From assembly GCA_050011895.1 (NCBI GenBank), contig JBEKIF010000013.1:27744-91743 (forward strand): DNA of 64,000 nucleotides, written 5' to 3'. The position numbers and the translations under genes are program-made. This DNA comes from Streptosporangiaceae bacterium (GTDB lineage: Bacteria; Actinomycetota; Actinomycetes; Streptosporangiales; Streptosporangiaceae). Within the stretch, counting starts at the first letter, position 1; every line of letters begins with the position of its first letter. Positions 12,645 through 53,689 of this stretch are shown in pieces. The notes below the pieces were generated by a model, which was not told the DNA's origin, ran no database searches, and saw nothing but the letters and a program-made list of their open reading frames with translations.

Positions 12645-12681
12645 CAGGCCTGGAGAGCAGCGAGATGACGGTGCTTCCCAT

Positions 12682-14796
12682 ATGACGGTGACGCAGGCCC
12701 GCCCGGCCGTGCAGGCCACGCAGGAGGCTGCGCGGACGGCGCTTGACCGGGCCGCCGGTCACCTGTCCGGCCTCCAGCATGAGCGCGGCTGGTGGCAGGG
12801 GGAGCTGGAAACCAACGTCACGATGGACGCGGAGGACCTGCTGCTCCGCGAGTTCCTCGGCGTGCGGACGGCGGAGCAGACCGCGGCGGCCGCCAGGTGG
12901 ATCAGGTCCAAGCAGCGGCCGGACGGGACCTGGGCCAACTACTACGACGGCACCCCCGACCTGTCCACCACGGTCGAGGCTTACGTGGCGCTGCGGCTGG
13001 CCGGCGACCCGCCAGGCGCAGCTCACATGGCCCGCGCCGCCAGCTGGATCACTGAGCGCGGCGGGATCGCGGCAACGCGCGTCTTCACCCGTATCTGGCT
13101 GGCCCTGTTCGGCGAATGGCCGTGGGATGACCTGCCGGTCATGCCACCGGAGATGATCTACCTGCCGACCTGGTTCCCGCTGAATGTGTACGACTGGGGG
13201 TGCTGGGCGCGGCAGACAATCGTCCCGCTGACCATCGTCGGCTCGCTGCGCCCGGTGCGGCCGCTGCCCTTCGGCCTCGACGAGTTGCGAGCCGGTGACT
13301 CGCGCCGGCCGGCCAGGCGCGGCTCGCGGGCCGGCTGGGCCGGGCTGTTCAACGGCATTGACCGGGGGCTGCACGTCTATCAGCGCTACGGCCTCAGGGC
13401 CGGGCCGGCGCGCGCGGCCAGGACGGCGGCCCTTCGCCGGTGCGCGGAATGGATAGTCGCGCGGCAAGAGCGGGACGGCTGCTGGGGCGGAATCCAGCCG
13501 CCGTGGGTCTACTCGCTGATCGCGCTCCACCTGCTGGGCTACGGGCTCGATCATCCCGTCATCCAGCGCGGTCTCGCGGGCCTGGACCGCTTCACCGTCT
13601 GGGAGGAGACCGCCGAGGGGCCGGTGCGCAGGCTGGAAGCATGCCAGTCGCCAGTCTGGGACACGGTGCTCGCGATGATCGCCCTCGCCGATGCGGGGCT
13701 GCCGCCAGACCATCCGGCGCTCCGGTCGGCGGCGCGGTGGGTGCTCGAGGAGGAGATCCGCGGGCCCGGCGACTGGCAGGTACGTCGGCCCGGGCTGGAA
13801 CCGGCCGGATGGGCATTCGAGTTCGACAATGACGGCTATCCCGACGTCGATGACACGGCGGAGGTGCTGCTGGCGCTGCGGCGGGTGGCGCTCACGGGCC
13901 ACCTGGGCTCAGCTGACGCCATGGAGCGGGCGGCTCGCTGGCTCACCGGGATGCAGTGCCGTGACGGCGGCTGGGCCGCCTTTGACGCGGACAACACCGG
14001 CACGCTGGTGACCAAGCTGCCGTTCTGTGACTTCGGCGAGGTCACCGATCCGCCGTCGGCTGACGTGACCGCGCACACCATCGAGGCCCTGGCAGCGGCA
14101 GGCCTGGCCGGGAGCAAGGCAGTGCGCAGGGGAGTGGCGTGGCTGCTGCGGGCCCAGGAGAGCGACGGTTCATGGTTCGGGCGCTGGGGCGCCAACTACC
14201 TGTACGGGACCGGTGCCGTGGTGCCCGCGCTGATCGCCGCCGGCGTGCTGCCAGGCAAGCCGCCGATCCAGCGGGCCATCGCGTGGCTGACCGCGCACCA
14301 GAATCCCGATGGCGGCTGGGGCGAGGACCTGCGTTCGTATGAGGACACAAGCCGGGCCGGCCGTGGCCCGTCGACCGCCTCGCAGACGGCGTGGGCGCTG
14401 CTGGCGCTGCTGGCCGTCGGAACGGCCGGAGGGGATGAGGCCGCGGTCAGCGTTGACCGGGGGGTGCGCTGGCTCGCCGAGACCCAGCGGCCGGACGGAA
14501 GCTGGGACGAGCCCCAGTACACCGGGACCGGGTTCCCCGGCGACTTCTACATCAACTATCACCTGTACCGGCTGGTCTTCCCGGTCAGCGCGCTTGGCAG
14601 GTTCCTGGGCGCCGCGGACCCGGCAGGCCAGGGCCCGCCCGGCCAGGAACCCCCCGGCCGAGGTCTGGGGGCTCCTGGGGTTGCGGGACGGGGGCTGGCC
14701 GGGCAGGAGCTTGCCGGGCAGGGGCTTGCGGACAACGAAGCAGCGGACCAGGGGCACGGATCAGCCGGCTACCGAGCAGCGGGCGGTGCGGCATGA
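12682..14796 (+). CDS. shc: Squalene-hopene cyclase (Shc/HpnF)
   Basis: Catalytic [10 protein letters not shown] (DxDD) motif and multiple QW repeats ([34 protein letters not shown]). The start was moved to the internal Met (MTVTQARP) because upstream ORF residues are Arg/Pro-rich overlap with the previous gene. It has an unusual ~60-aa Pro/Gly-rich C-terminal tail. Confidence 0.9.
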
Positions 14797-32587: not shown

Positions 32588-32844
32588 TTCCGGCGCAGCC
32601 GGGACTTCACGGCTATTCCCGGTCGCTGATCTGGCAGTTCAGCGAGTGCGGCCTAAATAGGCGTCTTTAGTTATTCGGCATATCATTTCGCTACGTTGCG
32701 TAGTCCGGTGACAACCATTCGTGACAGTCGCACGTCTAGTTGTTGTGAGGCTGTAGCGCTAAGTCAAGAGGTAGCTACTCATCGCCAGAAAGCTGCCGAT
32801 TTGCGGCCTGCAGCAGCTGCCCGAGCAGACCGGAGGAAAGACGA

Positions 32845-33630
32845 ATGGCTAGTCGCTTATCCCGCGCGGCTGGCGCCCTGGCGGGCGCCATCGCCGGCAT
32901 CACCGCGCTGAGCCTCGTTCCTGCGGGCGCCGCCACCGCCTCGTCACGGCAGGCCGGGCCGGCCGGATCGACGCGGCAGGCCGGGACGGCCGGATCGACG
33001 CGGCAGGCCGGGCGCCGGACCCCGGCGCGGCCGTCCCAGCCCGCCGCCAGGCCAGACGCGAGCGTGCCATGCGGTGCGTTCTGCGCGAGCTACTTCACCG
33101 AGAAATACGGGCCTGAATTCGTGCTGAACGATTTCCGCGGCCGCCAGGCCACCGGCACCCGGGTAACCCTCCGCTATGCCAGTAATAGCGACCCTGCCGA
33201 AGATTGGAGCATATGGCCGACTGGAACGGTCCGCCAGCTTGCCGCTTTCGGTATCGTCAGCCGGGCACTGGCCCTGCACTATGGCGCGGACCAGGCCTTC
33301 GAGGCCGAGTTCGCCCCGTACGGCACGCCTACCGGGCTGTGCGCCGGGCTGGCCGGCGGCGCGGCCAGCGGCGAGAGCGTGACGCTGCAGTGGTGCGGGC
33401 AGAGCGGCAAGACAGTCTGGGTTACCGACGCAGCAGATCAGGCCGGCAACTACGCCCCGCTGATCAACGGGTCAGACCGCAATTTCAGTGATCCGCAAGT
33501 GCTGACCGAGCCCGGCTGGCCGACTCGCTGGCCGCGTCCGCAGCTGATCAGCGACCGGCTGCAGAAGTTCGCTGACGGGACCGTCTACGACGATCAGATG
33601 TGGGACAACACCACCGGCGTGCTGCCCTGA
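32845..33630 (+). CDS. Secreted beta-trefoil (ricin-B-like) lectin-domain protein, paralog A
   Basis: Signal peptide (AGALAGAIAGITALSLVPAGAA). An STRQAG x2 linker repeat. A mature domain with three QxW-like elements (EDWSIW, LQWCG, TVWV). It is paralogous to the next gene. Confidence 0.5.
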   Translation: MASRLSRAAGALAGAIAGITALSLVPAGAATASSRQAGPAGSTRQAGTAGSTRQAGRRTPARPSQPAARPDASVPCGAFCASYFTEKYGPEFVLNDFRGRQATGTRVTLRYASNSDPAEDWSIWPTGTVRQLAAFGIVSRALALHYGADQAFEAEFAPYGTPTGLCAGLAGGAASGESVTLQWCGQSGKTVWVTDAADQAGNYAPLINGSDRNFSDPQVLTEPGWPTRWPRPQLISDRLQKFADGTVYDDQMWDNTTGVLP

Positions 33631-33932
33631 CGCCCGGACCTGCGCGGCCTGGCCGGGCGGTCGCGCGCCGTCTTTCGCCGGCCAGACCGGGCACGGCGGG
33701 CAGCGTACGCTGCCCGCCGCAAGGAGGCCAGGTCAGGCCGCCTGGCCGAGCGGCGCAGCGTACTGTTGCGACCCAACTACTCGTGGTAACGTGCTAACTA
33801 CTAACTGGCAGGGCGGGATTACAGAACGCTACCAAGCCAGGCATTATTCGATCAGCCGCGACCGGCCATTGCTTGACCGCCCAAGCCGCCGGAGTAGGCA
33901 GTCGGCCCCGCAATTCACAGGAAGGAATCACC

Positions 33933-34628
33933 ATGCCTAACCGCTTTACCAAGGCGTGCTACGCGATGGCGGCTGGCGTTGCCGTCACAGCGGCAATCGG
34001 CCTTACCGCGGCTGGCGCGGCAAGCGCGTCCACCAGCAGCGTCAAGCCGGACGCCACCCCGCCGTGCGGCTATCACTGCATCAACCCGTACACCGCGAAG
34101 TTCGGCCCGGGCTGGGTGCTGCAGAACTACCGGGCGATCAACGCCGTCGGCAACCCGCTGAAGCTGCAGTACGCCAGCAACACCGCTCCCGGCCAGGACT
34201 GGACGATCTACTTCCAGGGCTCGGTGAACTGGTTCTATCACCACGGCCTGGTGAGCGCGAGGCTCGCGCTCCACTACGGCCATGAGCCCGCTTATGAGCT
34301 GCAGTGGTCGCCCTACGGCGTGAACACCGGCCTGTGCCAGGGGACCAGCGCGCCGGCGGCCAACGGCCGCAAGGTCAACCTCCAGGAGTGCGGCGACAAC
34401 GCCAACACTGTCTGGGTGCTCGATTTCCAGGACGCTCCTCCGCACATCGGGTTCGTCCCGGTCATCGCTGGCTCGACGACCAACTTCAGCCAGCCGCAGG
34501 TGCTGACCGCCGGCACGCCGCCGACGGAGCAGCTGTACACCTACCGCATCCACACCTTCGCGGATGGATCGGTTGCCAACAACCAGCTCTGGTGGGCCTT
34601 CCCGGGCATGATCGGCCCGGCCATCTAG
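33933..34628 (+). CDS. Secreted beta-trefoil (ricin-B-like) lectin-domain protein, paralog B
   Basis: Signal peptide (MAAGVAVTAAIGLTAAGAASA). Same Cys pattern (PCGYHC) and QxW-like elements (QDWTIY, LQECG, TVWVLD, QLWW). The start is set at the internal MPNRF. Confidence 0.5.
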   Translation: MPNRFTKACYAMAAGVAVTAAIGLTAAGAASASTSSVKPDATPPCGYHCINPYTAKFGPGWVLQNYRAINAVGNPLKLQYASNTAPGQDWTIYFQGSVNWFYHHGLVSARLALHYGHEPAYELQWSPYGVNTGLCQGTSAPAANGRKVNLQECGDNANTVWVLDFQDAPPHIGFVPVIAGSTTNFSQPQVLTAGTPPTEQLYTYRIHTFADGSVANNQLWWAFPGMIGPAI

Positions 34629-34821
34629 TTGGCGCATGACTGAGGTGCCGGGACCGGGCCAGGCAGCGCAAGGCCACCCGGTCCGGCACTCCAGCCAGGT
34701 CAGGGCGCAGGCGTACCTGTCACGCAGGTCGCCAGCGGCCAGGCCAGGACCGCAAGGTGCCCCTCCGCCAGACCGGCGGGGGGGCATCTGCCGTTCCGGA
34801 GCCCGCTGGTAGAGAGGATCC

Positions 34822-35589
34822 GTGCGAGGTCTGAGTGAGGTGGCCCCGGGGATACTCGTCGCTACCGGTGAGCTGTATGTGACCAACACGACCGCCGTAG
34901 CCGGCCGCGGCGGCTGCCTGCTCATCGACCCGGCTGTGACACCGGGCGAGCTCCGGCTGCTCGCGGCGGACCTGGCAGCCCGGGGGCTGCGGCCGCAGGC
35001 GGGCTTCGCGACGCACGCGCACTGGGATCACGTGCTGTGGTGCCGGGAGCTCGGGAGCGCGCCGAGATACGCGACGGCGGCGGCGGCCCGGGCGGCCCGG
35101 CGGGACCGGGCGGCCCTGATCACCGCCGTCCAGGCTGCCGCTCCCGGGCACGACCTCGAGGTATTCGGCAGGCTGCGGCCGCTCGAGCCCGGCCAGGACG
35201 AAGTCCCGTGGGACGGCCCGCGGGCGCGCCTGCTGGCGCACAACGGGCACGCGCCCGGTCACGCTGCCATCTTCCTGCCTGACGCAGGCGTGCTGGTGGC
35301 CGGCGACATGTGCTCCGACATCGAAGTCCCGCTGCTCGACCTGGACGCCACCGATCCGCTCGGCGACTATCGCGCCGGGCTCGAACAGCTGGCCGGTCTT
35401 TCCGGGGTGCGGTGGGTCGTTCCTGGACACGGCTCCGCCGGGGACGCGGCCGCCTTTCGCGCCCGGGTGGCAGCAGATGTCGCCTATCTGGACGCTCTCG
35501 AGCGAGGCGACGGCTCAGCCGATCCCAGGCTGGCCCTCGACTGGCTGCGGGGCGAGCACGAACGGCAACAGGGGCACTTCCGGCGCTGA
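34822..35589 (+). CDS. MBL-fold metallo-hydrolase
   Basis: ATHAHWDHV (HxHxDH) and the downstream HGS ligand motif. The long opposite-strand ORF 35120..36688 is a GC shadow ORF. Confidence 0.7.
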   Translation: MRGLSEVAPGILVATGELYVTNTTAVAGRGGCLLIDPAVTPGELRLLAADLAARGLRPQAGFATHAHWDHVLWCRELGSAPRYATAAAARAARRDRAALITAVQAAAPGHDLEVFGRLRPLEPGQDEVPWDGPRARLLAHNGHAPGHAAIFLPDAGVLVAGDMCSDIEVPLLDLDATDPLGDYRAGLEQLAGLSGVRWVVPGHGSAGDAAAFRARVAADVAYLDALERGDGSADPRLALDWLRGEHERQQGHFRR

Positions 35590-35812
35590 GACCCGCGGCG
35601 GTCACGTTGCGGTTAATTGCCGTGCGCCTGACGTGCTGTCCGGAAATAATCGGCGGAATGGCACCGTCCCCAGGTCCGCTCGCCGGGCTGCGCCCCGCGC
35701 TGTTGCGGCGGCTGCGGCTGGACCGGGCAACCTGGCAGGCCACCCGCCGCATCCTGGTGAGGATCGACGGCCACGGCCTGACGGGCTGCCCGCATTGCTC
35801 CGGCCGGCCCGG

Positions 35813-36457
35813 GTGACTGGCGTGAGCGGGGTCAACGCGGTGGTGTTCGACCTCGGCGGAGTGCTGCTGGACTGGGATCCCCGTTATCTCTACCGCAAGC
35901 TCTTCGCTGGCGACGAGGCAGCGATGGAGCAATTCCTGACCGACGTGTGCACGCGGCAGTGGCACGCCGCACATGATCTGGGCGGCAGTGTCACGCAGGC
36001 CTGCGTGGAACTTGCCGCCCGCCATCCTGAGCAGGCCGAGCTGATCAGGGCCTGGGCAGAGCGGAGCGAGGAGATGGTAGCTGGCCCGATACCGGGCAGC
36101 GTGGCGATCCTGGCCGACCTTCAGCGCCGCGGCGTTCCCTGCTATGCGCTGAGCAATATGGAAGCGGAGACCTTCCCGCTCCGGTTGCAGCGGTTTGCCT
36201 TCCTGCGCTCGTTCGACGGGCACGTGATCTCTGGCCTGGAGGGGATGGTCAAACCGGACCCTAGGATCTACCGCCTGCTGCTGCGGCGATACGACCTTCC
36301 TGCCGCCCGGACGCTGTTCATCGACGACAACGCCGACAACGTGACCGCGGCCCGTGCCGCCGGGATGCGCGCGGTCCGCTTCGAGTCCCCGCTGGTCCTG
36401 CGCGGTCAGCTCGAGTCGATAGGCCTGCTGGAGCCAGGTTCCGCAGCCGCCGACTGA
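35813..36457 (+). CDS. HAD-superfamily hydrolase (subfamily IA)
   Basis: Motif I VVFDLGGVLLDWD near a GTG start at 35813. Motif S(N) CYALSNM. A C-terminal DD motif, LFIDDNADNV. Confidence 0.7.
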   Translation: MTGVSGVNAVVFDLGGVLLDWDPRYLYRKLFAGDEAAMEQFLTDVCTRQWHAAHDLGGSVTQACVELAARHPEQAELIRAWAERSEEMVAGPIPGSVAILADLQRRGVPCYALSNMEAETFPLRLQRFAFLRSFDGHVISGLEGMVKPDPRIYRLLLRRYDLPAARTLFIDDNADNVTAARAAGMRAVRFESPLVLRGQLESIGLLEPGSAAAD

Positions 36458-36707
36458 TCGGTAGCGGGCGCCGCGCGAGGCTGAACGCGATGGATGCGGC
36501 GTGCAGGCTGCGTCGAGCTGATTGTCCCGCTGCGCGACTGGCCACGCCCGTGAACGACCAGGAGCACTCCCGGGCGGCAGGGCCCGTCCCGCGGCGTCGG
36601 ACCAATGCGCCGCGCCGATGCGAGATCGTGATCCTGGAGTTGTATTCGCGGGGAGTGGATCGTCGTCATAGCAGGTGACGGGAGCCAATCCGGAAAGGAA
36701 TCAACCG

Positions 36708-37145
36708 ATGAGATTCAATCGCGTGCGGGTCGTTCTGGCGGCTGGGCTGATGACACTCGCCGGGACGACGTCCGCGGCCGTGCTGGCCGCAGGTCCGGCG
36801 TCGGCCAGTTCCAGCCAAGTGGTCGTGGTGAACTGCGGCCAGGGCCAGGTCCGGCCAGCCCAGTACGACATCGGCTGCATGGCCTCCCAGGAGTTCCTGG
36901 CCGGGCTGCGCTGGACGAGCTGGCGTTCGGTAGCCTTCGGCGGCGGCGTCCTGAAGGTGAACGACTGCACGCCAAGCTGCGCGAAGGGCACGTATATCAA
37001 GTACCCGGTCCTGACCGTCCTGTGGCGGGCCAGGCCGTGGCCGGCGCACGCCGGCCGGCGGTACTTCAGCCGCCTCACCCTTATTTTCACCGGCAAGCGC
37101 CCCGCCCATGTCCCGGTGACCCAGACCATCACGCTTCCGGCCTAG
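36708..37145 (+). CDS. Secreted hypothetical protein (signal peptide, 4 Cys)
   Basis: MRFNRVRVVLAAGLMTLAGTTSAAVLAAGPASA signal peptide. The mature domain has CGQGQ...GC...DCTPSC pairs. No family was recognised. Confidence 0.45.
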   Translation: MRFNRVRVVLAAGLMTLAGTTSAAVLAAGPASASSSQVVVVNCGQGQVRPAQYDIGCMASQEFLAGLRWTSWRSVAFGGGVLKVNDCTPSCAKGTYIKYPVLTVLWRARPWPAHAGRRYFSRLTLIFTGKRPAHVPVTQTITLPA

Positions 37146-37488
37146 GCGCGGCCGCCAATGCCATTCGCTGCCCTGGCGCGGGCTTGCGCGTAAGAAGCTG
37201 GTCCAGGTGCGCGGGCGCGGTGCGCGGTCGTTCATGGCATCTTCGCCGACGAGCGACCCCGTGCACCGCGCCCGTGCTGACCGCGCATGCCGCGCGGTCA
37301 GCAGGGGCGCAGTGACAGGCTGTGGTCCGTGCCTGTCAGGATGAAGTGGTCAGCACTGCGATGATTGGGGGCTGTCATGACGGGAGCCATGGGAGCCGGC
37401 TTCAGCATGCTGCGCAGCGGCAGGGTCGTCGGCTGGCACCGGAGGCCGAGGTGATGTTCAAGTATGCGGGCCCGCGGCGTGGTCACCG

Positions 37489-38484
37489 GTGCTGGATATG
37501 AGTTCAGCTGCGGGATCGCAGCCGGGGCTCCGGAGCTCGCGCGGCATCCGGCGGTTGTCGGCGGGGGAGGGCCGGGCCGAGTCGCGGCGCGGGCAGCTGT
37601 CTCCGGAGGCCACGGTAAGCTTCGCCGCCGAGCGCGGCGCTGCGGGCATCGACGACGTCTTCGCGGCCCTCGACCGCGAGCTTGTCGGCCTTGTGCCGGT
37701 CAAGAAACGGATCCAGGAGATCGGGTCGCTGCTCCTAGTTGACCGGGTTCGGCAGCGGTTCGGGCTGGCGGCACCCCGGCCGAACCTGCACATGTGCTTC
37801 ACTGGCGCCCCGGGGACCGGCAAGACCACCGTCGCGCTGCGGATGGCTGATCTCCTGCACCGGCTCGGTTACCTGGAGCGCGGTCAACTCGTGCATGCCA
37901 TGCGGAACGACCTGGTCGGCGAGTTCGTCGGTCAGACCGCGCCGAAGACCAAGAAGGTCCTCGACCGGGCGATGGGCGGCGTGCTGTTCATCGACGAGGC
38001 ATACTACCTCTACCGGACTTCGGACTCGCGGGACTACGGCCAGGAGGTTATCGACATCCTCCTCCAAGTGATGGAGAACGAGCGCGGCAAGCTCGTGGTG
38101 ATACTCGCTGGCTATAAAGACCGCATGGACACCTTTTTCGCGTCTAACCCCGGGATGAATTCCAGGATTGCTCATCACCTAGATTTCGCCGACTATGAGA
38201 CTGGCGAGCTGATAGCGATCGGGCGGCTGATGCTCGAGCAGGCCAGCTACTACCTCTCCGCGGAGGCAGAGATAGTGTTTCGTGACTACCTCATGCGCCG
38301 GATGCACCTGCCGCACTTCGCCAATGCCCGCAGTGTCCGCAACGAGCTGGAGCGGTCCCGGCTACGGCACGCGCACCGTCTTGCCGCCGACCTGCACCGC
38401 AGCTGGAGCCGGGATGATCTCATGCGCATCGAGCCCGTGGATCTCCTGGCCGGCGATGTCTTCTCGCTGCCGGTCACCGATTAA
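37489..38484 (+). CDS. CbbX/CfxQ-family AAA+ ATPase (SpoVK/EccA-C-terminal-like)
   Basis: Walker A GAPGTGKTT and Walker B VLFIDEAYYL, plus the CbbX-type regions VMENERGKLVVILAGYKDRMD and NARSVRNELER. The true start probably lies downstream of 37489. Confidence 0.75.
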   Translation: MLDMSSAAGSQPGLRSSRGIRRLSAGEGRAESRRGQLSPEATVSFAAERGAAGIDDVFAALDRELVGLVPVKKRIQEIGSLLLVDRVRQRFGLAAPRPNLHMCFTGAPGTGKTTVALRMADLLHRLGYLERGQLVHAMRNDLVGEFVGQTAPKTKKVLDRAMGGVLFIDEAYYLYRTSDSRDYGQEVIDILLQVMENERGKLVVILAGYKDRMDTFFASNPGMNSRIAHHLDFADYETGELIAIGRLMLEQASYYLSAEAEIVFRDYLMRRMHLPHFANARSVRNELERSRLRHAHRLAADLHRSWSRDDLMRIEPVDLLAGDVFSLPVTD

Positions 38485-38588
38485 TCCGAACGGGGCGTTA
38501 GAGCTGCTGGTGACATCCTGGCTGGACGCGGGCGGGCAGCATGGTGCGGGTAAGGCTGGTAGCAGATAGGGAGGCTGGGAGCACAAGG

Positions 38589-39251
38589 ATGCGGAAGCTT
38601 GTTCTTCAGATCGCCGCGATCTCCCTCGACGGCTACATCTGCGAGGAGGGCACAGAGTTCTGGCGGTCGTTCGGATCTGCGTCCCTCCCGCCAGCACCGG
38701 ACGATAACGAGTATGAGGACTACTTCCTTACGACACTGCGGCGCGCGGGGACCCACATCATGGGCCGCGTGACCTACGAGTCAATGGCAGATACCTGGCC
38801 GACGTCCACAGACCCGGTAGCCGCCATCATGAACGACATCCCGAAGGTCGTGTTCTCCAAGACCCTGCCTTCCGCAGACTGGCCGGAGGCACGGATCGCT
38901 CGCGGTGATACGGCCCAGGAGATTGCCCGGCTTAAGGCCGAGCCGGGCGGCGAGGTCGTCGCACACGGGGGCGCCCTGTTCGCGCAGTCCCTTGCGCGGC
39001 TCGGCCTCGTGGATGAGTACCGCTTGTATGTGCTTCCGGTGGCGGTGGCAAGCGGGAAGCCGCTGTTTACTGACGTCGGCCGTCCCCAGGGCTTGCGCCT
39101 GGTGTCGGGCCGGGTGTTTCAATGCGGTGTGCTCGCGCTCGAGTACCGGCCGATGACCGTCCAGGAACTGGAGGCGGTCGTCCCGATCCCGGACACCGGG
39201 AAGGAACTGCAAGCCAGGCTCGATGCGGCGCGATCCGGATCGGCTACCTAG
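38589..39251 (+). CDS. Dihydrofolate-reductase-like (RibD C-terminal domain) family protein
   Basis: MRKLVLQIAAISLDGYI start and the C-terminal motifs VVAHGGALFAQSLARLGLVDEYRLYVLPVAVASGKPLF. Confidence 0.7.
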   Translation: MRKLVLQIAAISLDGYICEEGTEFWRSFGSASLPPAPDDNEYEDYFLTTLRRAGTHIMGRVTYESMADTWPTSTDPVAAIMNDIPKVVFSKTLPSADWPEARIARGDTAQEIARLKAEPGGEVVAHGGALFAQSLARLGLVDEYRLYVLPVAVASGKPLFTDVGRPQGLRLVSGRVFQCGVLALEYRPMTVQELEAVVPIPDTGKELQARLDAARSGSAT

Positions 39252-39336
39252 ACAGGCTGCGGAAGACCAGCACCTGGCGAGTCAGGCCAGGCAGTTGCGG
39301 CTGGTGATCAGCCGCGTAAAGGGGGGAACAGCAATG

Positions 39337-39724
39337 GCGCATCCCAACGAGGACCTGCTCAGGCGGGGATACGCGGCGTACAACTCCGGCGACATGGACA
39401 CCGTCCAGGCCCTGTTCGATGACGACATCGTCTGGCACGCCGGAGGATCCAACCAGACCACTGGTGAGTACCGCGGCTTCCAGGAGATCATGGGCTTCTT
39501 CGGCAAAGTGATGGAGCTAAGCGGTGGCACCTTCCGCACAGAGATCCACGACGTCCTGGCCAACGACAGGCGCGGCGTCGTACTGGTGGACCTTCCATGC
39601 CGAGCGGGACGGGCAGACGGTGGCGCTCCGGTCGGCCGACATCTGGCATCTGGCAGACGGTAAGGTCACGGAACACTGGTCATTCTTTGAGGACCAGGCC
39701 GCCGCTGACAAGCTCTTCAGCTGA
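39337..39724 (+). pseudogene. SnoaL-like / NTF2-like protein disrupted by a +1 frameshift near 39590
   Basis: The N-terminal half (MAHPNEDLLRRGYAAYNSGDMDT...HDVLANDRRGVVLVD) is in one frame. The C-terminal half (FHAERDGQTVALRSADIWHLADGKVTEHWSFFEDQAAADKLFS) continues in the +1 frame. Deleting one C in gtggaccttccatgcc would restore a contiguous VVLVDFHAERDG reading. Confidence 0.65.
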
Positions 39725-40043
39725 CCCGCCCGGGCACGGCCTCTTCGTCCCGAAGCCAAGTTCATGGGTTCTCAGGCTGGGCGCATGTGGCACCTGACCT
39801 GCTGAGTTTGTTCGCGAGCGTCCGCGGGAGTCCAGGCACGAACGTCCCGATCGTCACTCAGTTGGTCACTCGGTTCAGCCAGCTAGGCAAAAGGCTGGGA
39901 CCTCTTCCTTATCAGGGTGTCGGCCTGGCAGCGCGAATAAGCTTCGGCCGCCTGTGACCTGGTGTCGTGAAGCGGCGGCGGCCGTGACTGCCCCCTCCGG
40001 TGACCTCCATATTCCTGGCTGCCCTAGGGCCAATGTAGGGCTA

Positions 40044-40085
40044 GCCCTAGGGGATCCTTGATTACCCCTAGGGGATCCTTGATTA
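40044..40085. repeat. Perfect 21-bp tandem direct repeat x2 (ccctaggggatccttgattac), iteron-like
   Basis: Read directly. The repeat contains the palindromic hexamers CCTAGG and GGATCC. A further cctagggc/gggctagccctagg dyad lies just upstream (40022-40048). Confidence 0.7.
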
Positions 40086-40227
40086 CTCTGCCAGACAGGC
40101 TCCGGCGGCGGTAGGTCGGCTGTGCCTTTGGCAGCGCGGCTGGCAGAGCTCACATGACTAACTTAGGGTTTCCGCGTCTGGTCCGCGAGCACCGGACGGC
40201 TGATCGTCTGCCAGGGCGCCTTGCGCT

Positions 40228-40275
40228 GTCGCTCTTGACAGCGTCGATATCATAGTGATATCATTTTAATAGGTG
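40228..40275 (+). promoter_or_regulatory. Candidate sigma70-type promoter with an embedded perfect palindromic operator
   Basis: The sequence TTGACAgcgtcgatatcatagtgatatcatTTTAAT has a TTGACA -35-like hexamer. It has a perfect 7-bp inverted repeat, GATATCA-tag-TGATATC. It has an AT-rich -10-like hexamer ~20 bp upstream of the ATG at 40288. Confidence 0.45.
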
Positions 40276-40287
40276 GTCGGATAGCCA

Positions 40288-40617
40288 ATGCCGCAGCTGA
40301 CGGGAAGTGTCCCGATGAACGCACAAAATGACAACACCGCTCCGAGCGGTCTGCGCGGGTGGTGGGCATCTCCCCCGCGATCGGGCATGCGACGCATAAT
40401 CTGGCCATTCGAGTACCGCCACCTCCGCGCGTTCGGACGCGTGCGCACTGCCGCTGGAATCGTCCTGGTCGGCCTTGGCGTCGTTACCCTCGTGGGGGGT
40501 TCCTTTGCAGCGGTGGCTATCGCGTGGGGGATAGTGTTCCTGGCGGCGGCGGCGGCGAACTTGGCGTGGGCCGCCTGGCTGATGGCTATCGCTCGTTCCG
40601 CATCTGCCCGAACCTGA
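40288..40617 (+). CDS. Small 2-TM membrane protein (hypothetical)
   Basis: 109 aa with a basic N-terminus and then two hydrophobic helices (IVLVGLGVVTLVGGSFAAVAIAW, IVFLAAAAANLAWAAWLMAIA). No family was recognised. Confidence 0.45.
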   Translation: MPQLTGSVPMNAQNDNTAPSGLRGWWASPPRSGMRRIIWPFEYRHLRAFGRVRTAAGIVLVGLGVVTLVGGSFAAVAIAWGIVFLAAAAANLAWAAWLMAIARSASART

Positions 40618-40816
40618 GCCTAGGGCCGGTAATCGATGGAGGTTCGGCGCGCGCCGCGCGGTGGTTCGTCAGTGGCGCACGCTCCTCGTGAGTGGGCGGG
40701 CGGTCGGGATGTGTCGACCCGGAGCGTCAGGCACTCAACCGAGGCATGTATACGAGCGGGCACGCCGAACTCGCGGATTAAAAGGCGGGCTCGGCCACGG
40801 TCGACCCGGTCTGAAT

Positions 40817-41062
40817 TCAGGTGAGTCGGCTGGGACGGCTTGGTGTGGGCCTAACGCGTTGTCGCCAGGTGAGATAAGCCCAGACGGCGTTTGCCACCGC
40901 GCCCGCGATCGTCAGTATCGCCCAGCCCCAGTAGCCGTAGGCCAGCAGGACGCCGGTCAGGGCGAGCAGCCAGGCCGTGACCAGCACGCGGATGACTATC
41001 ACGCTACGCGGATGCCTGCCGCCGAAGCGTGTAAGAGTGGCATGCTCAGTCGCGGTATTCAT
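40817..41062 (-). CDS. Small 2-TM membrane protein (hypothetical; distant paralog of 40288..40617)
   Basis: Same architecture and a shared AANxxWAxW-like motif (AVANAVWAYLTW vs AAANLAWAAWLM). The start is set at the internal MNTATE. It is convergent with the previous gene. Confidence 0.4.
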   Translation of the reverse strand: MNTATEHATLTRFGGRHPRSVIVIRVLVTAWLLALTGVLLAYGYWGWAILTIAGAVANAVWAYLTWRQRVRPTPSRPSRLT

Positions 41063-41189
41063 TACGCAGCCTCCTGTAGTGCCCGGGCACGCAGCCAACG
41101 AGTGGCGTGCAGTTACCGGGGTCCAGAGCAGCTATCTGCAGCGTACGCGTCCGGTGCGCGTCCGGGAAGTTCGTCGGGAACGGTGAATC

Positions 41190-42095
41190 TTGGCGACGCC
41201 GCCAGCCAAGTCCTGGTCGCGGCGCGGGGAGCGCCGGACGCGGCGCCGCAGGCGCCGCCTTGATACCGGCTCTCGCGCGGCGCGGCCGTTCGGGCCGGTT
41301 ACCGTGGCCAAGGCCTACCGGTTGCTGCATGCGATCTTCGAGACCGCGGTGGATGATCAGATGGTCCGCCGTAACCCCTGCCGGATCGAGGGCGCGGGCG
41401 AGGAGGATTCTCCAGAGCGCGAGGTCGTTTCGCTGCCCGTCGTGTTCGCGATCGCTGACGCGCTTCCTGTGCGCTACCGCGTGATGGTGCTGATGGCGAC
41501 TTTCGCGAGCATGCGCTGGGGCGAGCTGGTGGGCCTTCGCCGGGAGAACATCGACTTGGATGCGTGCGAGATCCGGATTGTCGAGACGACGGCTGAGCTG
41601 GACCGCGGAGACCTGCTGCCCGAGACGCCTAAATCGCGGGCAGGTCGGCGCACGGTGACGTTCCCGGCCGAACTGGTGCCCGAGTTGCGCTGGCATTTGG
41701 AACGGTTCGCCCAGCCGGGGGAGCGGGGCCTGGTCTGCGCCGGGCCGAAGGGCGCCACGCTGCGCCGGTCAAACTTCCGGCCGATCTGGAATGCCGCGTG
41801 CGACAAAGCAGGCATGCCCGGGCTGCACTTCCACGACCTGAGGCACGTGGGCGGGACGCTGGCCGCAGGTACCGGGGCGAGCCTTAAGGAGTTGATGGCC
41901 CGCCTGGGGCATTCGAGCACGCGCGCTGCGATGATCTACCAGCACGCGACCAGGGACCGTGACCAGGCCATCGCCAAGGCGCTCGGCGGCCTGGTCCAAC
42001 AGCTTCGGGCGACTACTGCGGACGGGCCGGAAGAGGTCAGCGGTGACGCGTACTTTCCGCTTGCTGTGGCCCGTATGTGGCCCGGCTCGGGCTGA
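41190..42095 (+). pseudogene. Tyrosine recombinase (phage-integrase family) lacking the N-terminal core-binding domain
   Basis: The catalytic domain is present (LHFHDLRHVGGTLAAGTGASLKELMARLGHSSTRAAMIYQH). The ORF begins mid-protein (..AYRLLHAIFETAVDDQMVRRNPC..) with an Arg-rich non-homologous leader. It ends 66 bp from the 3' end of tRNA-Gly. Confidence 0.7.
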
Positions 42096-42160
42096 GCTGA
42101 GCGAATCCTGACTGATCAGGGAGATGACCTGCTCTGGCCCAGCGACCTGGGCTTACGTGG

Positions 42161-42234
42161 TGGAGCGGGCGAAGGGAATCGAACCCTCATGACCAGCTTG
42201 GAAGGCTGGGGCTCTACCATTGAGCTACGCCCGC
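42161..42234 (-). tRNA. tRNA-Gly (anticodon TCC)
   Basis: The reverse complement reads GCGGGCGTAGCTCAATGGTAGAGC C CCAGC CTTCCAA GCTGG ... GGGTTCGATTCCC TTCGCCCGC TCCA. It has the cloverleaf arms and a TCC anticodon. Coordinates are from manual indexing, +/-1. Confidence 0.85.
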
Positions 42235-42368
42235 GGTACGTGGACCTCAGGCCGTAGCGTACCGCCTGTGGGAAGGCTCTCGCGTGCCGCCCGGCTGACG
42301 CGAGCGGGCTGGGCGCTGTTGCGCGCGGCCGCGCGATGCCGGAACACGGTAGGCTTCGGGTTGCCCGA

Positions 42369-42446
42369 CGGGATGTAGCGCAGCTTGGTTAGCGCGCCTG
42401 CTTTGGGAGCAGGAGGCCGCGGGTTCGAATCCCGCCATCCCGACCA
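42369..42446 (+). tRNA. tRNA-Pro (anticodon TGG)
   Basis: CGGGATG TA GCGC AGCTTGGTTA GCGC G CCTGC TTTGGGA GCAGG AGGCC GCGGG TTCGAAT CCCGC CATCCCG A CCA. It has U33, a TGG anticodon and G37. Coordinates are from manual indexing, +/-1. Confidence 0.85.
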
Positions 42447-42915
42447 AAAGTGCAGGTCGCAGGGCTTGCTGAGGACGGCCAAGTGGCTTCCAAGATCGTT
42501 TGAGTGTCCCGAACGTGGCGGGGGGCTCGATGTAAGTAGAGCCCTTTGATGCGGTGCTGCGTGGACGATGGAGGATTGTGGCCCTCCGGAGCCGCGCCCT
42601 GGTCAGCGTGGCGAGAGGGAGCTGCTCGCGGCAATTGCGAGCGTGCGCGGATTGCCGGATCGGTCGCAACCGGATGTGGCCCGGATCGAGCAGGCCGCGT
42701 GGCGACGCAGGAGGGGGCGCAGGCGAGCTGGCGTGAGCTGGCCGAAGCTACGCTCGCTTGCTGAACGTGGCACGCGACCACAGGTATCCGACGAGGGCGA
42801 TCCCGGCGCACCAGGTAAGAGCGGCGGCCGCGTAGCCACCCGACGGGGGTTCGTGGCCGCGTCCACCGGCAGCCACCGCTATATCCTTGACTACCCCGCC
42901 TGCGACTGGGACGCC

Positions 42916-43374
42916 ATGATCGCCACGCTGCTGACACTCCACGACCAGCAGCGCGAAGCGAACCTGGACACACGCCGCGGTCACCGCCCCCGGATGACTG
43001 CCCCCGGAACCGGCCGCCGCCCCGTCCTCACCCTCGCCGACCGGCTCCTGGCCACCATCCTCCACCAGCGCCTCGCCCTGCCCCAGGTCGCCATCGCCAC
43101 CTTGTTCGGCGTCCGGCCCGAGACAATCAACAAGCGCATCCGCGACATCCGCCAGCTCCTGGACCAGGCCGGATACACCATCCAGCCCCGGCCCGCACCG
43201 GCTCGCCAGCCTGGACGACCTTTACAGTCTCGCGACCGCAGAGGAAATCACCGTGCCTCCAGAGATCAAGACAGCGTGTTAATCATCTGCAAGCTCTTAG
43301 AACGGCTGCATTGGTGCCGGGGTATGGCGGGTGTCCGCAGAGGGGAGTTACCGTCGGCCCGTGACTCTTGCTGA
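42916..43374 (+). mobile_element. IS5/IS4-family (DDE_Tnp_4-type) transposase remnant: HTH_Tnp_4 region only, DDE domain missing
   Basis: PVLTLADRLLATILHQRLALPQVAIATLFGVRPETINKRIRDIRQLL matches the helix-turn-helix of DDE-superfamily transposases. The downstream sequence is non-homologous and has no DDE motifs. Confidence 0.55.
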
Positions 43375-44041
43375 CGCGTGGGAGGAGAATGCGCCGGATT
43401 GGATCGCGTGGGCGCGCGCTCCGCTGCATGACGGGTTCTGGGAGGGCACCTGGCCGACGCTGCGCGCGATCATGCCGGAGCCGGACGGCCCGGTCCTAGA
43501 TCTGGGCTGCGGGGAGGGCCGGGCGGCCCGGCTGCTTCTGGCGGCGGGGTGGCGGGTGATAGGCATTGAGCAGTCGGCGACGCTGGCGCGTGCTGCGGCC
43601 ACGGGTTCGCCGCCGGTGCCGGTCGTGCGGGCCGATGCCGCTGGGCTCCCCATCGCCGACCGGAGCGTCGGCCTGGTGGTGGCGTGCATGTCGCTGCTGG
43701 ATGTCGACGAATTCGAGGGCGCGGTCGCGGAGGCGGCGCGGGTCCTGCATCCGGGCGGGGTGTTCTGCATCGCGATCGTGCATCCATTCGACTCGGCTCT
43801 GGACGATCACGTCCCGGAGGGCGGCGCGTACCGGGTGCCGGGGCCGTACTTGCAGGCTCGCCGTTACGAAGATCACTTTGAGCGGGGTGGCCTGGCGATG
43901 ACGTTTGTCAGCATGCACCGGCCGCTCGGCGCCTATACCGCGGCCCTGTTCGGCCATGGCATGGTCATCACTGAGCTCCGCGAGCATGGCGACGGTGACA
44001 TCCCCTGGCTTCTGGTAATCCGCGCCCAGAAGCGCGGCTGA
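43331..44041 (+). CDS. Class I SAM-dependent methyltransferase
   Basis: Motif I VLDLGCGEGRAA, post-I acidic VIGIEQS and motif II-like LHPGGVFCIA. Confidence 0.7.
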   Translation: MSAEGSYRRPVTLADAWEENAPDWIAWARAPLHDGFWEGTWPTLRAIMPEPDGPVLDLGCGEGRAARLLLAAGWRVIGIEQSATLARAAATGSPPVPVVRADAAGLPIADRSVGLVVACMSLLDVDEFEGAVAEAARVLHPGGVFCIAIVHPFDSALDDHVPEGGAYRVPGPYLQARRYEDHFERGGLAMTFVSMHRPLGAYTAALFGHGMVITELREHGDGDIPWLLVIRAQKRG

Positions 44042-44553
44042 ACCGGGCACCTGGAGCAGGCGTCTGGCTGGGTGGACTGGTTCGTCGGCAAGCTCACCCG
44101 CCGCCAGATCCAGCCGGCGGTGTGGGACGCTGCGACAGCGTGCGCCTGCCTGCAAGCCGAGCGCGAGATCACCTGGGCTGATCGCCGCGCAGCCATGGCA
44201 GCTTCGTGTCATCGAGCAGGCCGACTGGCGGGCGTCAGGTGACTAGCACCCAGAACTCGGACGGATTCGGACCGTTCCCATCGTGGCCCGGGCCTGTCTC
44301 TTAATCGGTGGGTCGTAGCACCTCGCCGTCTGGGAGGGGGATCAGTCGGCCGACGACCCGGCGGCAGACCAAGAGCACGGGCAGCCGCACGCCCCTATAT
44401 CCGCAGCGCGCCAGGCTTCTGAGGTGCCCCGGTTTCGGCTAACCCTTGATACGGGGAGGAGCAGGCTACGATGGCAGACTCGCCACGGCGGTTGACCGGT
44501 GGCCGATGATCGCACCACGATTATGACGACAGTCATCTCAAAGGAGCGGTCGC

Positions 44554-44877
44554 ATGATCCTGATCAACATCAAGATGCCGATCCGGCCCGACAAGGTGGA
44601 CGAGTGGCTCGCACTAGCCGATTCCTACGCCAAGGATGTCAACTCCGAAGATGGCTGCCTATTCTTCCAGTTCGCCCGGAGCCTCACCGATAAGAACGAG
44701 TTCATCTGCATCGAGGGCTTCAAGGACGCCGAGGCGGGAGCCAACCACGTCAGGCAGCCGTACGTGAAGAGGTTCTTCGACACCGCGCCCGACCTCGTGT
44801 CTGCGCAGCCGCAGATCATCTACATCGACGCGCCGCATGACGGCTTCGGCCCGATGGGCGAGATCCAGCCTCGCTGA
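44554..44877 (+). CDS. Antibiotic-biosynthesis-monooxygenase (ABM) domain protein
   Basis: ~107 aa ferredoxin-like ABM pattern (MILINIKMPIRPDKVDEWLAL...CLFFQFARSLTDKNEFICIEGFKDAEA). Confidence 0.6.
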   Translation: MILINIKMPIRPDKVDEWLALADSYAKDVNSEDGCLFFQFARSLTDKNEFICIEGFKDAEAGANHVRQPYVKRFFDTAPDLVSAQPQIIYIDAPHDGFGPMGEIQPR

Positions 44878-45088
44878 CCGCCAACGGCAAGGTGCCGGAG
44901 CCTGACCGGATGCCTTCGGTTTACCTGATGAGGAAGAGATCCGATAGCTGTCGTGCTGCCTTCCCGATGGTGGTACCCGCCTGCGCTGGAAGACGTGATC
45001 GAGTTCTTGATCGCCGAGAAGCTCGCCAAACCGCGCGAGGGCTGGCGGAAGGTGCTCGACACGAGTCGTGACAACTTCGCCGGGCCTG

Positions 45089-45739
45089 CTAGGTGCCCGT
45101 CTGGCGGAAACGGGCAGCCAGACGGCCTACCCGCCCGGTAACGCCGCGCCTGCTGACCAGTCGCAGGCCAGGTATCAGTTTGGGCACCCGCTGGCGATAG
45201 CGCGGATAATCGCCAGGAAACTCGGCCTGCATGAGCCGTTCCTCGACGCGGATCTTGATCTCGAGAAACACGAGGAAAACAGGGAAGGGCAGGACCCATC
45301 GCCCGCCCCCGGCCAGCAGCAAGGAGCCGAGCATCATGCCCAGCATCCCGGTGTAGATGGGATGCCTGGTTACGCCGTACGGCCCGCTGGTACGGAGCTG
45401 GTGCTCCTGCTTCACCGCGGGTGCACCGCTCCACATCGTGCCGAGCGCGAGCCTGGCCCACAGCGTGAACGCCGTGGCCGCCAGCAGGATCGCCAGACCC
45501 AGGAGGCGAACCCAGGGCGTTAGGTGCACGGCCAGGGATTCCCAGTCTGCCTTGGGCACCGCGACCCACCCCACGCCCACGACGACCCAGCCCGATCGAA
45601 CGAACCACCTTCGGGTCCGTTCCACCGCCGGGGCGCGCGACTGGTTGTAAATCGCACCGGCGAGCCAGGTCAGCGCGAAAGCACCCCAGCACGCCGCGAG
45701 GCTGACCACGGCGAGCAGGTTCAGCTGCTGCGGCGTCAC
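45089..45739 (-). CDS. Isoprenylcysteine carboxyl methyltransferase (ICMT/PEMT) family membrane methyltransferase
   Basis: RHPIYTGMLGMMLGSLLL and a C-terminal EERLMQAEFPGDYPRYRQRV, with multiple TM helices. Confidence 0.7.
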   Translation of the reverse strand: MTPQQLNLLAVVSLAACWGAFALTWLAGAIYNQSRAPAVERTRRWFVRSGWVVVGVGWVAVPKADWESLAVHLTPWVRLLGLAILLAATAFTLWARLALGTMWSGAPAVKQEHQLRTSGPYGVTRHPIYTGMLGMMLGSLLLAGGGRWVLPFPVFLVFLEIKIRVEERLMQAEFPGDYPRYRQRVPKLIPGLRLVSRRGVTGRVGRLAARFRQTGT

Positions 45740-46049
45740 GCTGCAAACGTAGCCATGCCGCGACCTTTGTCAACAGTCTTTCCGTGCAGCACGACGGCGC
45801 GGCCACCGTGACGCCCGGCTGGCCTTCACCTGCGATCTGGCGCAGGTCGGGCAGCAGGTCGCGCAGTTCGGCGGCCACCGACTCAGACGGCTCGGCGAGC
45901 ACGATGAACACCGGGTCGCCGCCGGCGTCGGCTACCCAGGTCTCGGCGAGTCCTGGGCCCTGACGCGACCTACGGCAACGGTGCCTTGGTGGGCAGGCCC
46001 TGTTCCCGGCCGAGTGGCGGTGTCGGCACCGTAATGAGCCTGACGCTGA

Positions 46050-46346
46050 TCACGATGTCTCGGTTGCGCCGGCCTCGTCGCCCAGTTCGCTGGCCAGCGC
46101 GTCGGCGGCTGCCGCCTTGCGAGCGGCCAGCATCCTGGCCTTGCGTTCGATGTCCTCGATTTGGGCAGGCCCCCACGCATGCACCACCTCCGGCTCGACG
46201 GAGAGCCGCACAGTGAGCCGGCAGGAACCCGCATTGCCGTCGGTGACCATAGTCCGCGCGAGCCACATGTTGCAGCTGTCCGGCTGGAGCGCGACTGGGG
46301 CCTCGGCCAGCAGGGTCTCGCCCAGGGAGTCAAGCACGTCCAGCAT
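46050..46346 (-). CDS. Hypothetical small protein downstream of ugd
   Basis: 98-aa ORF with no recognisable motifs. It is on the same strand as the ugd operon. Coding status is uncertain. Confidence 0.2.
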   Translation of the reverse strand: MLDVLDSLGETLLAEAPVALQPDSCNMWLARTMVTDGNAGSCRLTVRLSVEPEVVHAWGPAQIEDIERKARMLAARKAAAADALASELGDEAGATETS

Positions 46347-46432
46347 CGCCCCGGGCCGGTCAGTAGAGCGGATATGCAGCTGACCATGAACACCCAGCTC
46401 ACGCGCCGTTAGCTGGCCGACGGCACGCGCAG

Positions 46433-52636: not shown

Positions 52637-53689
52637 TCACGAGTCGCGCCTGGATCCCGCAGCCGGGGATTTGTGCGCTGACCGGTCGGCGGTGCGGCGT
52701 GACGCGATGGTTCCGTTGTGGTCGATGGCGGCGTTCCCGCACCGCCCGGCCCGCTGCGGCGGACGCGATGCTTCCGGCGTCACCTGCTGAGGCGCGCGGA
52801 AGGAGGCGACCAGGCGGGCCACGAGCGTGGCGAGGAAGACCTGCCCAGTTATCGCCTCGATGACGGCGACCGCCTGTCCGCCGCTCTGCGCGGCCGTGAA
52901 GTCGCCGTATCCGAGGGTCGTCAGCGTGGTGAAGCTGAAGTACTGGAAAGTCTGAGTCGTGCCGGGGCGCCCGCCAGCGAAGAACTGGTCGCCGCCGAAA
53001 TGGAACATTCCAGCATAGAAAGCGGCGAACATCAGCCCGAGGATCAGGTAGGCGCTCACTGCGCCGTAGATGCTCTGGAGAGTGACCGTGCCCATTTTAA
53101 GGACGCGCTCGACAATGATCACGACAGTCAGCAGCAGCACCAGGCCGGTCCAGAAATTCGCGATCCCGTCGCCTATCTCGCTGATCCTGCTCAGCGCAAG
53201 CCAAGCGGAGATCGCCGAGCCGACCAGCGCGACGCCGATGACAAGCTGCACAGTCCGTCGCCGAAACCGGGACGCGCGCAAGGTGAGGATCGCCACGGTA
53301 ACAAACAGCACGATCTGGATGAAGTTTACCCAGCCAGCGCTCGTGAACGCTGACAGCAGATAGGTGAAGATCAGCAGCAGGAGCAGAAACCCGTATCGAC
53401 GACGCGGCAGCGGCACGCCAGGGCTGGGGCGTGCCGCGTGCCCCGCCCTGGGTGGCACCGTCGCCGCCTCCTCAAATTCACCCGATGCGCGATGGCCAGG
53501 TCGTGCCTGGCGCATTTCACGCTTCTGTGCGCCAGCGTGAGCGCCTGTGCCCCCGCGCCGCATCACCCCGTGCGGATGACGCGCGGCAGGTAACGACCGC
53601 CGCATCCTTGGCCTGCTGTCGGAGGCAGGTGCGACGACGCGCAGGCATGCAACAGGCGACGAGGAGCTAACTGATGGCTGAGCAGGCAA
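52637..53689 (-). CDS. Potassium channel (TLGYGD selectivity filter) with ~5 TM helices before the pore
   Basis: Pore helix plus filter FSFTTLTTLGYGDF, followed by an inner helix AVAVIEAITGQVFLATLVARLV. Several upstream TM helices are present. The first ~90 residues of the track ORF are Arg/Pro-rich, so the true start is probably downstream of 53689. Confidence 0.65.
   Translation of the reverse strand: MPAQPSVSSSSPVACLRVVAPASDSRPRMRRSLPAARHPHGVMRRGGTGAHAGAQKREMRQARPGHRASGEFEEAATVPPRAGHAARPSPGVPLPRRRYGFLLLLLIFTYLLSAFTSAGWVNFIQIVLFVTVAILTLRASRFRRRTVQLVIGVALVGSAISAWLALSRISEIGDGIANFWTGLVLLLTVVIIVERVLKMGTVTLQSIYGAVSAYLILGLMFAAFYAGMFHFGGDQFFAGGRPGTTQTFQYFSFTTLTTLGYGDFTAAQSGGQAVAVIEAITGQVFLATLVARLVASFRAPQQVTPEASRPPQRAGRCGNAAIDHNGTIASRRTADRSAHKSPAAGSRRDS

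Follow-up and report, generated by a model that had tools for sequence, protein, structure and literature searches.

Integrative and conjugative elements from actinomycetes (AICEs) of the pSAM2 type carry a characteristic gene module, Tra...RepSA-Xis-Int (PMC2440964, PMC3218068), and pSAM2 and its initiator RepSA are assigned to the pC194 family of rolling-circle replicons, which has the nick consensus 5'-CTTGAT-3' (PMC2440964). The integration target of pSAM2 is tRNA-Pro (PMC2440964), and decayed elements of this kind may be left behind at a tRNA, as with Sco3997 of Streptomyces coelicolor, an AICE remnant in which RepSA has lost its N-terminal half (te Poele et al. 2008, PMC2440964). Here we describe a 64-kb stretch from the genome of a Streptosporangiaceae bacterium (GenBank assembly GCA_050011895.1, contig JBEKIF010000013.1, positions 27,744 to 91,743 of the forward strand; G+C content 69.6%), hereafter the window, in which the segment from about 41200 to 42234 is the scar of a pSAM2-type AICE that was once integrated in the 3' end of a tRNA-Gly(TCC) gene.

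The window element resembles pSAM2-type AICEs in the family of its integrase, in the position and orientation of that gene at the 3' end of a tRNA and in an attachment (att) block lying inside the tRNA, and differs from pSAM2 in its target, tRNA-Gly(TCC). Like Sco3997 it is a decayed and non-mobile AICE left at a tRNA; unlike Sco3997 it is far smaller, at about 1 kb, and one att site is gone. A related locus, L071, resembles Sco3997 in having lost the N-terminal 200 residues of RepSA. The parts that survive are attR, the integrase-proximal arm of attP, the 3' two-thirds of the integrase gene (int) and some 64 nt of a putative double-strand origin (DSO). Both the orthology of its integrase and its element-specific non-coding sequence identify it as the remnant of an AICE, an object of a known kind. 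A full-length integrase and a pair of attL and attR sites are missing from the window, genes of the RepSA, Xis and FtsK types were not found among the ORFs scanned from 25 to 60 kb, and the remnant is now unable to excise, replicate or transfer.

An AICE scar at tRNA-Gly(TCC)

The scar and the two tRNA genes beside it comprise the following features.

41200-41264, plus strand: left half of a conserved AICE origin-like motif, the putative RepSA DSO (nhmmer, E = 6.5e-7; junction alignments; DNA fold).
41259-42050, plus strand: 5'-truncated tyrosine integrase gene (Δint), equivalent to residues 123-386 of 386 (Pfam, homologs, tblastn, alignments and substitution rates).
42051-42143, plus strand: arm of the former attP on the integrase side (int 3' ends aligned from the window, L004, L070, L071 and L006).
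42144-42205, no strand: att identity block, formed by 17 nt downstream of tRNA-Gly and the 3' part of the tRNA as far as the anticodon loop.
42161-42234, minus strand: intact tRNA-Gly(TCC) (ARAGORN; Rfam tRNA, 70.9 bits); the same tRNA adjoins the intact relatives.
42369-42446, plus strand: intact tRNA-Pro(TGG), divergent from tRNA-Gly (ARAGORN and Rfam agree).

An earlier, sequence-only reading of this DNA had recognized the tRNA pair, which ARAGORN and Rfam bear out, and an integrase reading frame that lacks its N-terminal part and ends close to the 3' end of tRNA-Gly. Both statements about the integrase hold. The open reading frame (ORF) around Δint runs from 41190 to 42095 on the plus strand, free of frameshifts and with the catalytic residues present, and 65 nt separate its stop from the tRNA 3' end; Pfam matches the Phage_integrase catalytic domain alone (63 bits). 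A large-database search returned 3742 integrase homologs, and the close full-length relatives are proteins of 386 aa in which two further N-terminal domains, Integrase_N_phage and Phage_int_SAM_3, precede Phage_integrase. With the full-length relative P0002 (92% identical) as tblastn query, residues 117/123-386 match 41241/41259-42050, and no frame of the 64 kb yields the first 116 residues; the 5' truncation of the gene is accordingly genuine. A frameshifted rather than truncated integrase was rejected, three-frame translation of the upstream DNA agreeing with tblastn that no N-terminal remnant is present. The original stop codon has changed from TAG to TAC (42051-42053), and the first 45 nt of the attP arm are read as a 15-codon extension. 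A complementary type of remnant, an isolated 81-aa Integrase_N_phage fragment, was seen at 10233-10478 of L077/L078, near IS110 fragments.

The nature of the element is established by its intact relatives, which occupy the same position at the same tRNA and possess the Tra...RepSA-Xis-Int module. Their 386-aa integrases have the same orientation, are separated from tRNA-Gly(TCC) by about 100 nt, with tRNA-Pro(TGG) beyond it, and share 77-84% nucleotide and up to 92% amino acid identity with the window; upstream of them are a 75-aa HTH_17 excisionase (Xis), RepSA and an FtsK/SpoIIIE Tra protein. Identity between the window and L001, L002, L004 and L006 is 76-88% at the nucleotide level over about 1 kb, including the spacer between int and the tRNA. 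The proposal of an eroded, AICE/pSAM2-like element at tRNA-Gly is thus upheld as to kind; its size is not, since the remnant covers only about 41200-42205, some 1 kb.

A scan of one genome per species produced 64 integrase loci, mostly from Streptosporangiaceae isolates and soil metagenome-assembled genomes, the window's own genome not being among them; the best matches to the window integrase have 90% and 87% amino acid identity. Int fragments truncated at the 5' end are frequent in these loci, with break points from residue 62 to residue 335, and many of the loci carry one to four additional copies of the att block (44-62 nt) equal to window positions 42144-42205. These extra att copies and truncated fragments mark tRNA-Gly(TCC) as a hot spot at which elements pile up and decay. 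In L039, L020, L056, L013 and L014 (10-16 kb of each), tandem arrays at tRNA-Gly(TCC) hold up to four att copies and several partial integrase fragments, a sign of repeated integration and decay at a single site.

The core of the window's attachment site (attR) is the 3' 45 nt of tRNA-Gly(TCC). No second copy (attL) was found in the window: a blastn-short search with the tRNA regions gave only chance matches of 14 nt, and an nhmmer profile of aligned att copies from relatives matched tRNA-Gly alone (E = 4e-20), followed by the T-arm of tRNA-Pro and noise, with chance-level sites at 15456 and 36661 (E about 1). Nor did blastn-short find in the window a repeat of the tRNA-Pro 3' end. In the relative L002, a second and different tyrosine integrase (11683-12870) stands directly after tRNA-Pro(TGG), which shows that in relatives this side too is used for integration. 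The spacer from the int stop to the tRNA has direct repeats of TGTGGCCCG at 42066-42074 and 42077-42085, which are kept in all relatives compared and are candidate arm-type binding sites for Int.

The break point and its possible origin

The left end of Δint abuts part of a conserved composite motif whose complete form consists, in order, of a GC inverted repeat, (C)CTTGAT, an AT-rich stretch of 12-15 nt and AATTCGGCA. Copies occur in 15 distinct loci, all on the repSA/int (plus) strand. We infer that this motif is a putative DSO, because its CTTGAT matches the nick consensus of the pC194 family; as in a pC194-type origin, the hexamer stands beside an inverted repeat, is conserved among elements that encode the cognate Rep and lies on the rep strand, which at the putative RepSA nick site reads GCCGCCTTGATCTAAG. 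A literature search for a mapped pSAM2 nick sequence yielded the pC194-family consensus only. The putative nick site is GCCGCCTTG/ATCTAAG, the slash marking the cut. In the window the GC inverted repeat (41240-41258) and CTTGAT (41259-41264) are preserved, and exactly after CTTG(AT) int takes the place of the right half of the motif: the fusion falls at G41262/A41263, from which int continues as ATACCGG. Intact int genes read CTCGATACC at this point (CTCGAT, codon 123), giving an int pseudo-site CGTCTCG/ATACCGG. The origin side is almost unchanged from that of a relative, window 41220-41262 and L071 4238-4280 being identical at 42 of 43 positions. A miniature mobile element of about 300 nt was also considered as the source of this DNA and rejected: on the left the segment adjoins the start of a conserved gene on the minus strand and is thus an AICE intergenic region.

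Junctions of this type recur. The int codon affected in the window is also the one affected in L004/L005, where the DSO-left half is about 70% similar to the window's by eye. Further junctions fall at int codon 233/234 (L013 and L028), at codon ~283 (L042 and L056), at codon ~223 (L046 and L055, judged by eye), at RepSA residue 201 (L071) and possibly at RepSA residue 35 (L036). CTTGA stands at the start of homology in 7 of 56 distinct truncated int fragments, against a background of 2.9% per 45-nt segment, by which about 1.6 would be expected (P about 0.001, a Poisson estimate). Near-matches to CTTGAT, with at most one mismatch, number only 4-5 per 1161 nt in the closest intact int genes, and one of these lies at codon 123. 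The recurrence of the junction type in other loci suggests deletion mediated by RepSA.

On balance we consider it probable that the window preserves an AICE scar trimmed through RepSA cutting at its nick site and at an int look-alike, and then by a second event. RepSA would cut the element at the nick site CCTTG/AT and at the look-alike CTCG/ATACC at codon 123 of int, and the joining of the two ends would remove tra, repSA, xis and the first 122 codons of int. If cutting and joining took place on the excised, replicating circle, two circles would result, one of which (the 3' part of int, attP, the left part of the element and the DSO-left half) would carry the observed junction. Such a non-autonomous Δint-attP circle could be integrated by Int supplied in trans, and L004 has that full structure: attL (7229-7290), 2.2 kb, the DSO-left/Δint fusion and attR. 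A second, uncharacterised event would then have removed the remaining left part and attL from the window. The broader proposition, to which we would give about even chances, is that AICEs of the RepSA type are trimmed recurrently by the initiator they encode, the nick site CCTTG/AT becoming joined to look-alikes in int and repSA to give non-autonomous derivatives with attP, and the origin-half/Δint scars of these accumulating at tRNA-Gly hot spots across the Streptosporangiales; int codon 123 (CTCGATACC) would be a hot spot of its own, struck independently in two lineages or more.

Aberrant replication events are known to reshuffle rolling-circle plasmids (PMC5703833). The deletions envisaged here are like those at the nick sites of pC194 and M13 in that one end point falls exactly on the nick sequence of the origin and the other varies, sometimes falling on nick-like sites; they are unlike them in being natural scars of chromosomal elements, known from sequence alone, rather than products of laboratory plasmids. 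In laboratory work, pC194 and M13 are known to give deletions anchored at the nick site, and Michel and Ehrlich reportedly described in 1986 how deletions form at the nick site of such rolling-circle replicons, as Ballester and colleagues are said to have done in 1989.

Several observations weigh against RepSA as the agent. In about 85% of the truncated int fragments the break lacks CTTGA, which means that deletion mostly takes other routes. The window and L004 both retain fewer than 90 nt to the left of the nick, for which the model needs its second event and leaves it unexplained. RNAalifold found only four invariant pairs in the inverted repeat and no covariation, and the stability of the window hairpin does not significantly exceed that of shuffled sequences (z = -1.5). 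The DSO assignment draws on motif and conservation alone, and the motif could instead be a regulatory site.

An alternative explanation is that an ordinary illegitimate or microhomology-mediated deletion made the junction without involvement of RepSA, the CTTGAT at the break being a coincidence or part of a fragile GC hairpin. The many fragments that end elsewhere (for example L008, L003 and L014), the spread of break points from residue 62 to 335 and the want of covariation support for the hairpin are all in keeping with it. It would have to account, however, for junctions no more than 1 nt from CTTGA/T in at least five independent combinations of site and locus, for the CTTGA enrichment and for a partner site that is one of the few near-matches to CTTGAT in the gene; we regard it as rather unlikely.

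It is improbable that Δint is instead a retained and possibly expressed recombinase, reduced to its catalytic domain and kept by purifying selection, for instance as a helper or inhibitor of incoming AICEs. The sequence has features that would fit such a role: its 264 codons contain no internal stop or frameshift, the catalytic residues are present, the ratio of non-synonymous to synonymous substitution rates (dN/dS) against the other copy truncated at the same break point, that of L004, is 0.11 at dS 0.385, lineage-specific changes number 20 synonymous to 4 non-synonymous, as in intact lineages, and an open frame with a start codon extends upstream in both the window and L004. Against this, the core-binding and arm-binding domains are gone, the stop codon has been lost and truncation points vary greatly among relatives. 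The DSO-left halves of the window and L004 also differ strongly, that of the window being the one nearly identical to L071's, which suggests recent independent truncations of functional genes and would alone explain the low dN/dS; a shared ancestral truncation followed by selection on Δint appears less likely than independent events on the same alignments.

Flanking features and the extent of the element

Four further features lie on either side of the scar as neighbours, none of them a part of it.

40045-40086, plus strand: perfect tandem of two 21-bp copies (CCCTAGGGGATCCTTGATTAC), detected by TRF, where none is expected by chance.
40098-40655, plus strand: conserved module, not related to AICEs, of a leader/promoter of about 190 nt and a gene (40315-40617) for a 100-aa protein with two transmembrane segments; 762 homologs, no Pfam family.
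40817-41062, minus strand: small ORF for a protein with two transmembrane segments, 81 aa from ATG or 93 aa from TTG, convergent with the 100-aa gene.
42874-43297, plus strand: 3'-terminal remnant of an ISAzo13-family insertion sequence (IS), with the C-terminal helix-turn-helix (HTH) region of its transposase, the stop (43280-43282) and the right inverted repeat.

The sequence-only reading had assembled a large and old island from this neighbourhood, about 32.6 to 46.4 kb, with iteron-type repeats, an IS5 transposase stub and the surrounding genes as cargo, and we now find this most improbable. The G+C fraction does fall to 0.63-0.65 at 38-41 kb and at 44-45 kb, and the neighbourhood is variable, both flanks of the tRNA pair differing from those of the partly syntenic locus L044; nothing connects this variability with the element. 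However, no attL was found, which counts against a large island and not against the remnant itself, and the flanks contain no AICE gene: Pfam scans of the ORFs from 25 to 60 kb revealed no repSA, xis or tra, although no search with RepSA itself was made against the window, and tblastn of the flanking and small ORFs against loci with AICE genes gave no AICE match. L044 shares with the window two lectin-like genes with a SpoIIE phosphatase and SIP upstream, and has its own attL-Δint-attR scar of 870 bp to their right; as the lectin-like genes (32845-34628 in the window) are thus syntenic outside the L044 remnant, they are backbone and not cargo. Base composition does not set the region's genes apart either, the G+C content at third codon positions of genes at 33.8-46.4 kb (0.72-0.88) overlapping that of the rest of the window (0.81-0.95), and the proposed cargo span of 32600-46400 falls with these results. 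The two remaining props, the repeats and the stub, proved to be a strain polymorphism of one or two copies, absent from relatives, and an ISAzo13 fragment beyond tRNA-Pro.

The 21-bp direct repeats exist, as two perfect copies; the role of iterons that had been given to them does not stand. They resemble the iterons of theta plasmids in being short direct repeats in non-coding DNA, and differ in being two perfect copies that vary between strains, with no adjacent rep gene and with relatives that replicate by rolling circle. Replicons with RepSA work by the rolling circle and have a nick-site origin; iterons are a feature of theta replicons (PMC2440964). Iteron arrays usually hold three or more repeats that a theta-type Rep binds and that related replicons conserve; the tandem has two, shows no such conservation and has no rep gene nearby. 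It lies 1.1 kb outside the AICE remnant and is absent from the 71 relative loci compared. Copy number varies between two metagenome contigs of the same peat population identified by an exact-match scan: L072, 99.3% identical to 39876-42168, has two 21-mer copies, and L073, 99.0% identical to 39724-43075, has one. The strains differ otherwise, too, by short indels, of 3 bp at 39997, of GGCGGC at 40541 and of 1 bp at 41182, and the window, L072 and L073 have the same Δint. The best reading of the tandem is that slippage duplicated the unit recently, in a spacer between genes.

Each 21-bp unit includes CCTTGAT (40056-40062 and 40077-40083), the heptamer of the putative nick site, preceded by the palindromes CCCTAGGG and GGATCC, and CCCTAGGG occurs a third time at 40022. 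A second nick-like site was considered here and set aside as coincidence: the heptamer is found seven times in the window against 3.6 expected, which is not significant, and the two tandem copies count as one because of the duplication.

Immediately to the right of the tandem begins the module at 40098-40655, which recurs at 82-84% nucleotide identity in unrelated and partly ordinary metabolic contexts (L076-L078) and in which the non-coding leader upstream of the 100-aa gene is itself highly conserved. The 81-aa ORF is possibly a distant paralogue of the 100-aa gene (hhalign, 63% probability). That the two small ORFs might be AICE spread genes was considered and rejected, as neither has a match in intact elements and the 100-aa family occurs in ordinary contexts.

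Beyond tRNA-Pro, the transposase stub is a real fragment with an HTH region; its assignment to IS5 fails, the best homologs being of the ISAzo13 family and the region C-terminal. The HTH_Tnp_4 match is below threshold (23.4 bits against the Pfam cut-off of 27), an NCBIfam scan of the fragment gave no match, and neither Pfam nor NCBIfam matched a DDE domain. A tblastn search against plasmids gave 66% identity between 42874-43197 and residues 426-534 of an ISAzo13-family transposase of 594 aa that has DDE_Tnp_ISAZ013 at residues 95-401 and an HTH_Tnp_4-like region at 478-523. Homology covers residues 426-564 only, with a frameshift near 43200. The 20-nt terminal repeat at 43278-43297 (GTTAATCATCTGCAAGCTCT) matches both inverted repeats of ISScl2, and with the stop and right inverted repeat kept, the fragment is the 3' end of an IS rather than an N-terminal HTH. 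It is like ISAzo13 elements such as ISScl2 of Streptomyces clavuligerus in the C-terminal ~110 residues (54-66% amino acid identity), the stop region and the right repeat, and unlike them in the loss of the DDE_Tnp_ISAZ013 domain and left end and in its frameshift. Lying beyond tRNA-Pro, outside the att-bounded side, it has no demonstrable link to the AICE of which it had been thought a part.

Among the other neighbouring genes, the SnoaL pseudogene of the sequence-only reading is confirmed as a gene frameshifted over two ORFs (39223-39663 and 39524-39724, within 39223-39724), both of which match SnoaL_2. An AAA+ ATPase at 37489-38484 scores 435 bits to the CbbX equivalog (cut-off 459), and no RuBisCO genes are visible in the window. 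A stretch of 285 nt at 52793-53077 is 76% identical to L044 18326-18610; it is apparently non-coding or made up of small ORFs, and has no Rfam match at the gathering threshold.

IS110-family elements were observed in L071 (2716-4222), L001 (1789-3129) and L022 (4416-5903). The insertions in L071 and L001 are in the same AICE intergenic region, about 50-60 nt to the left of the putative nick site, which suggests that these elements favour a target there. That the right end of such an IS, inserted in int and then causing the deletion, forms the window break is scarcely credible and was rejected, for although window 41220-41262 shares 97.7% identity with DNA that lies 40-80 nt downstream of the L071 transposase gene and the break sequence also resembles DNA near the L001 gene, the ~300-nt region is uninterrupted and without any transposase in L043, L013 and L040, L022 carries the IS without these flanks and the window has no IS110 transposase remnant, so that the IS was inserted into a conserved AICE region and is not its source.

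Possible consequences for AICE decay

The locus is a routine genomic scar, to be annotated as a pseudogene remnant and not as an island or replicon. What is new is that int breaks on the left half of a conserved origin-like AICE motif, a finding of modest mechanistic interest. In uncultured soil Streptosporangiaceae the tRNA-Gly(TCC)/tRNA-Pro(TGG) pair emerges as a hot spot of frequent integration, and the break points give a hint that the rolling-circle machinery of the elements themselves plays a part in their decay. Should this prove true, a large and uncharacterised AICE lineage would gain a defined origin motif, scars of this sort could be recognised, and the nick-site deletions of laboratory plasmids would have a natural counterpart.

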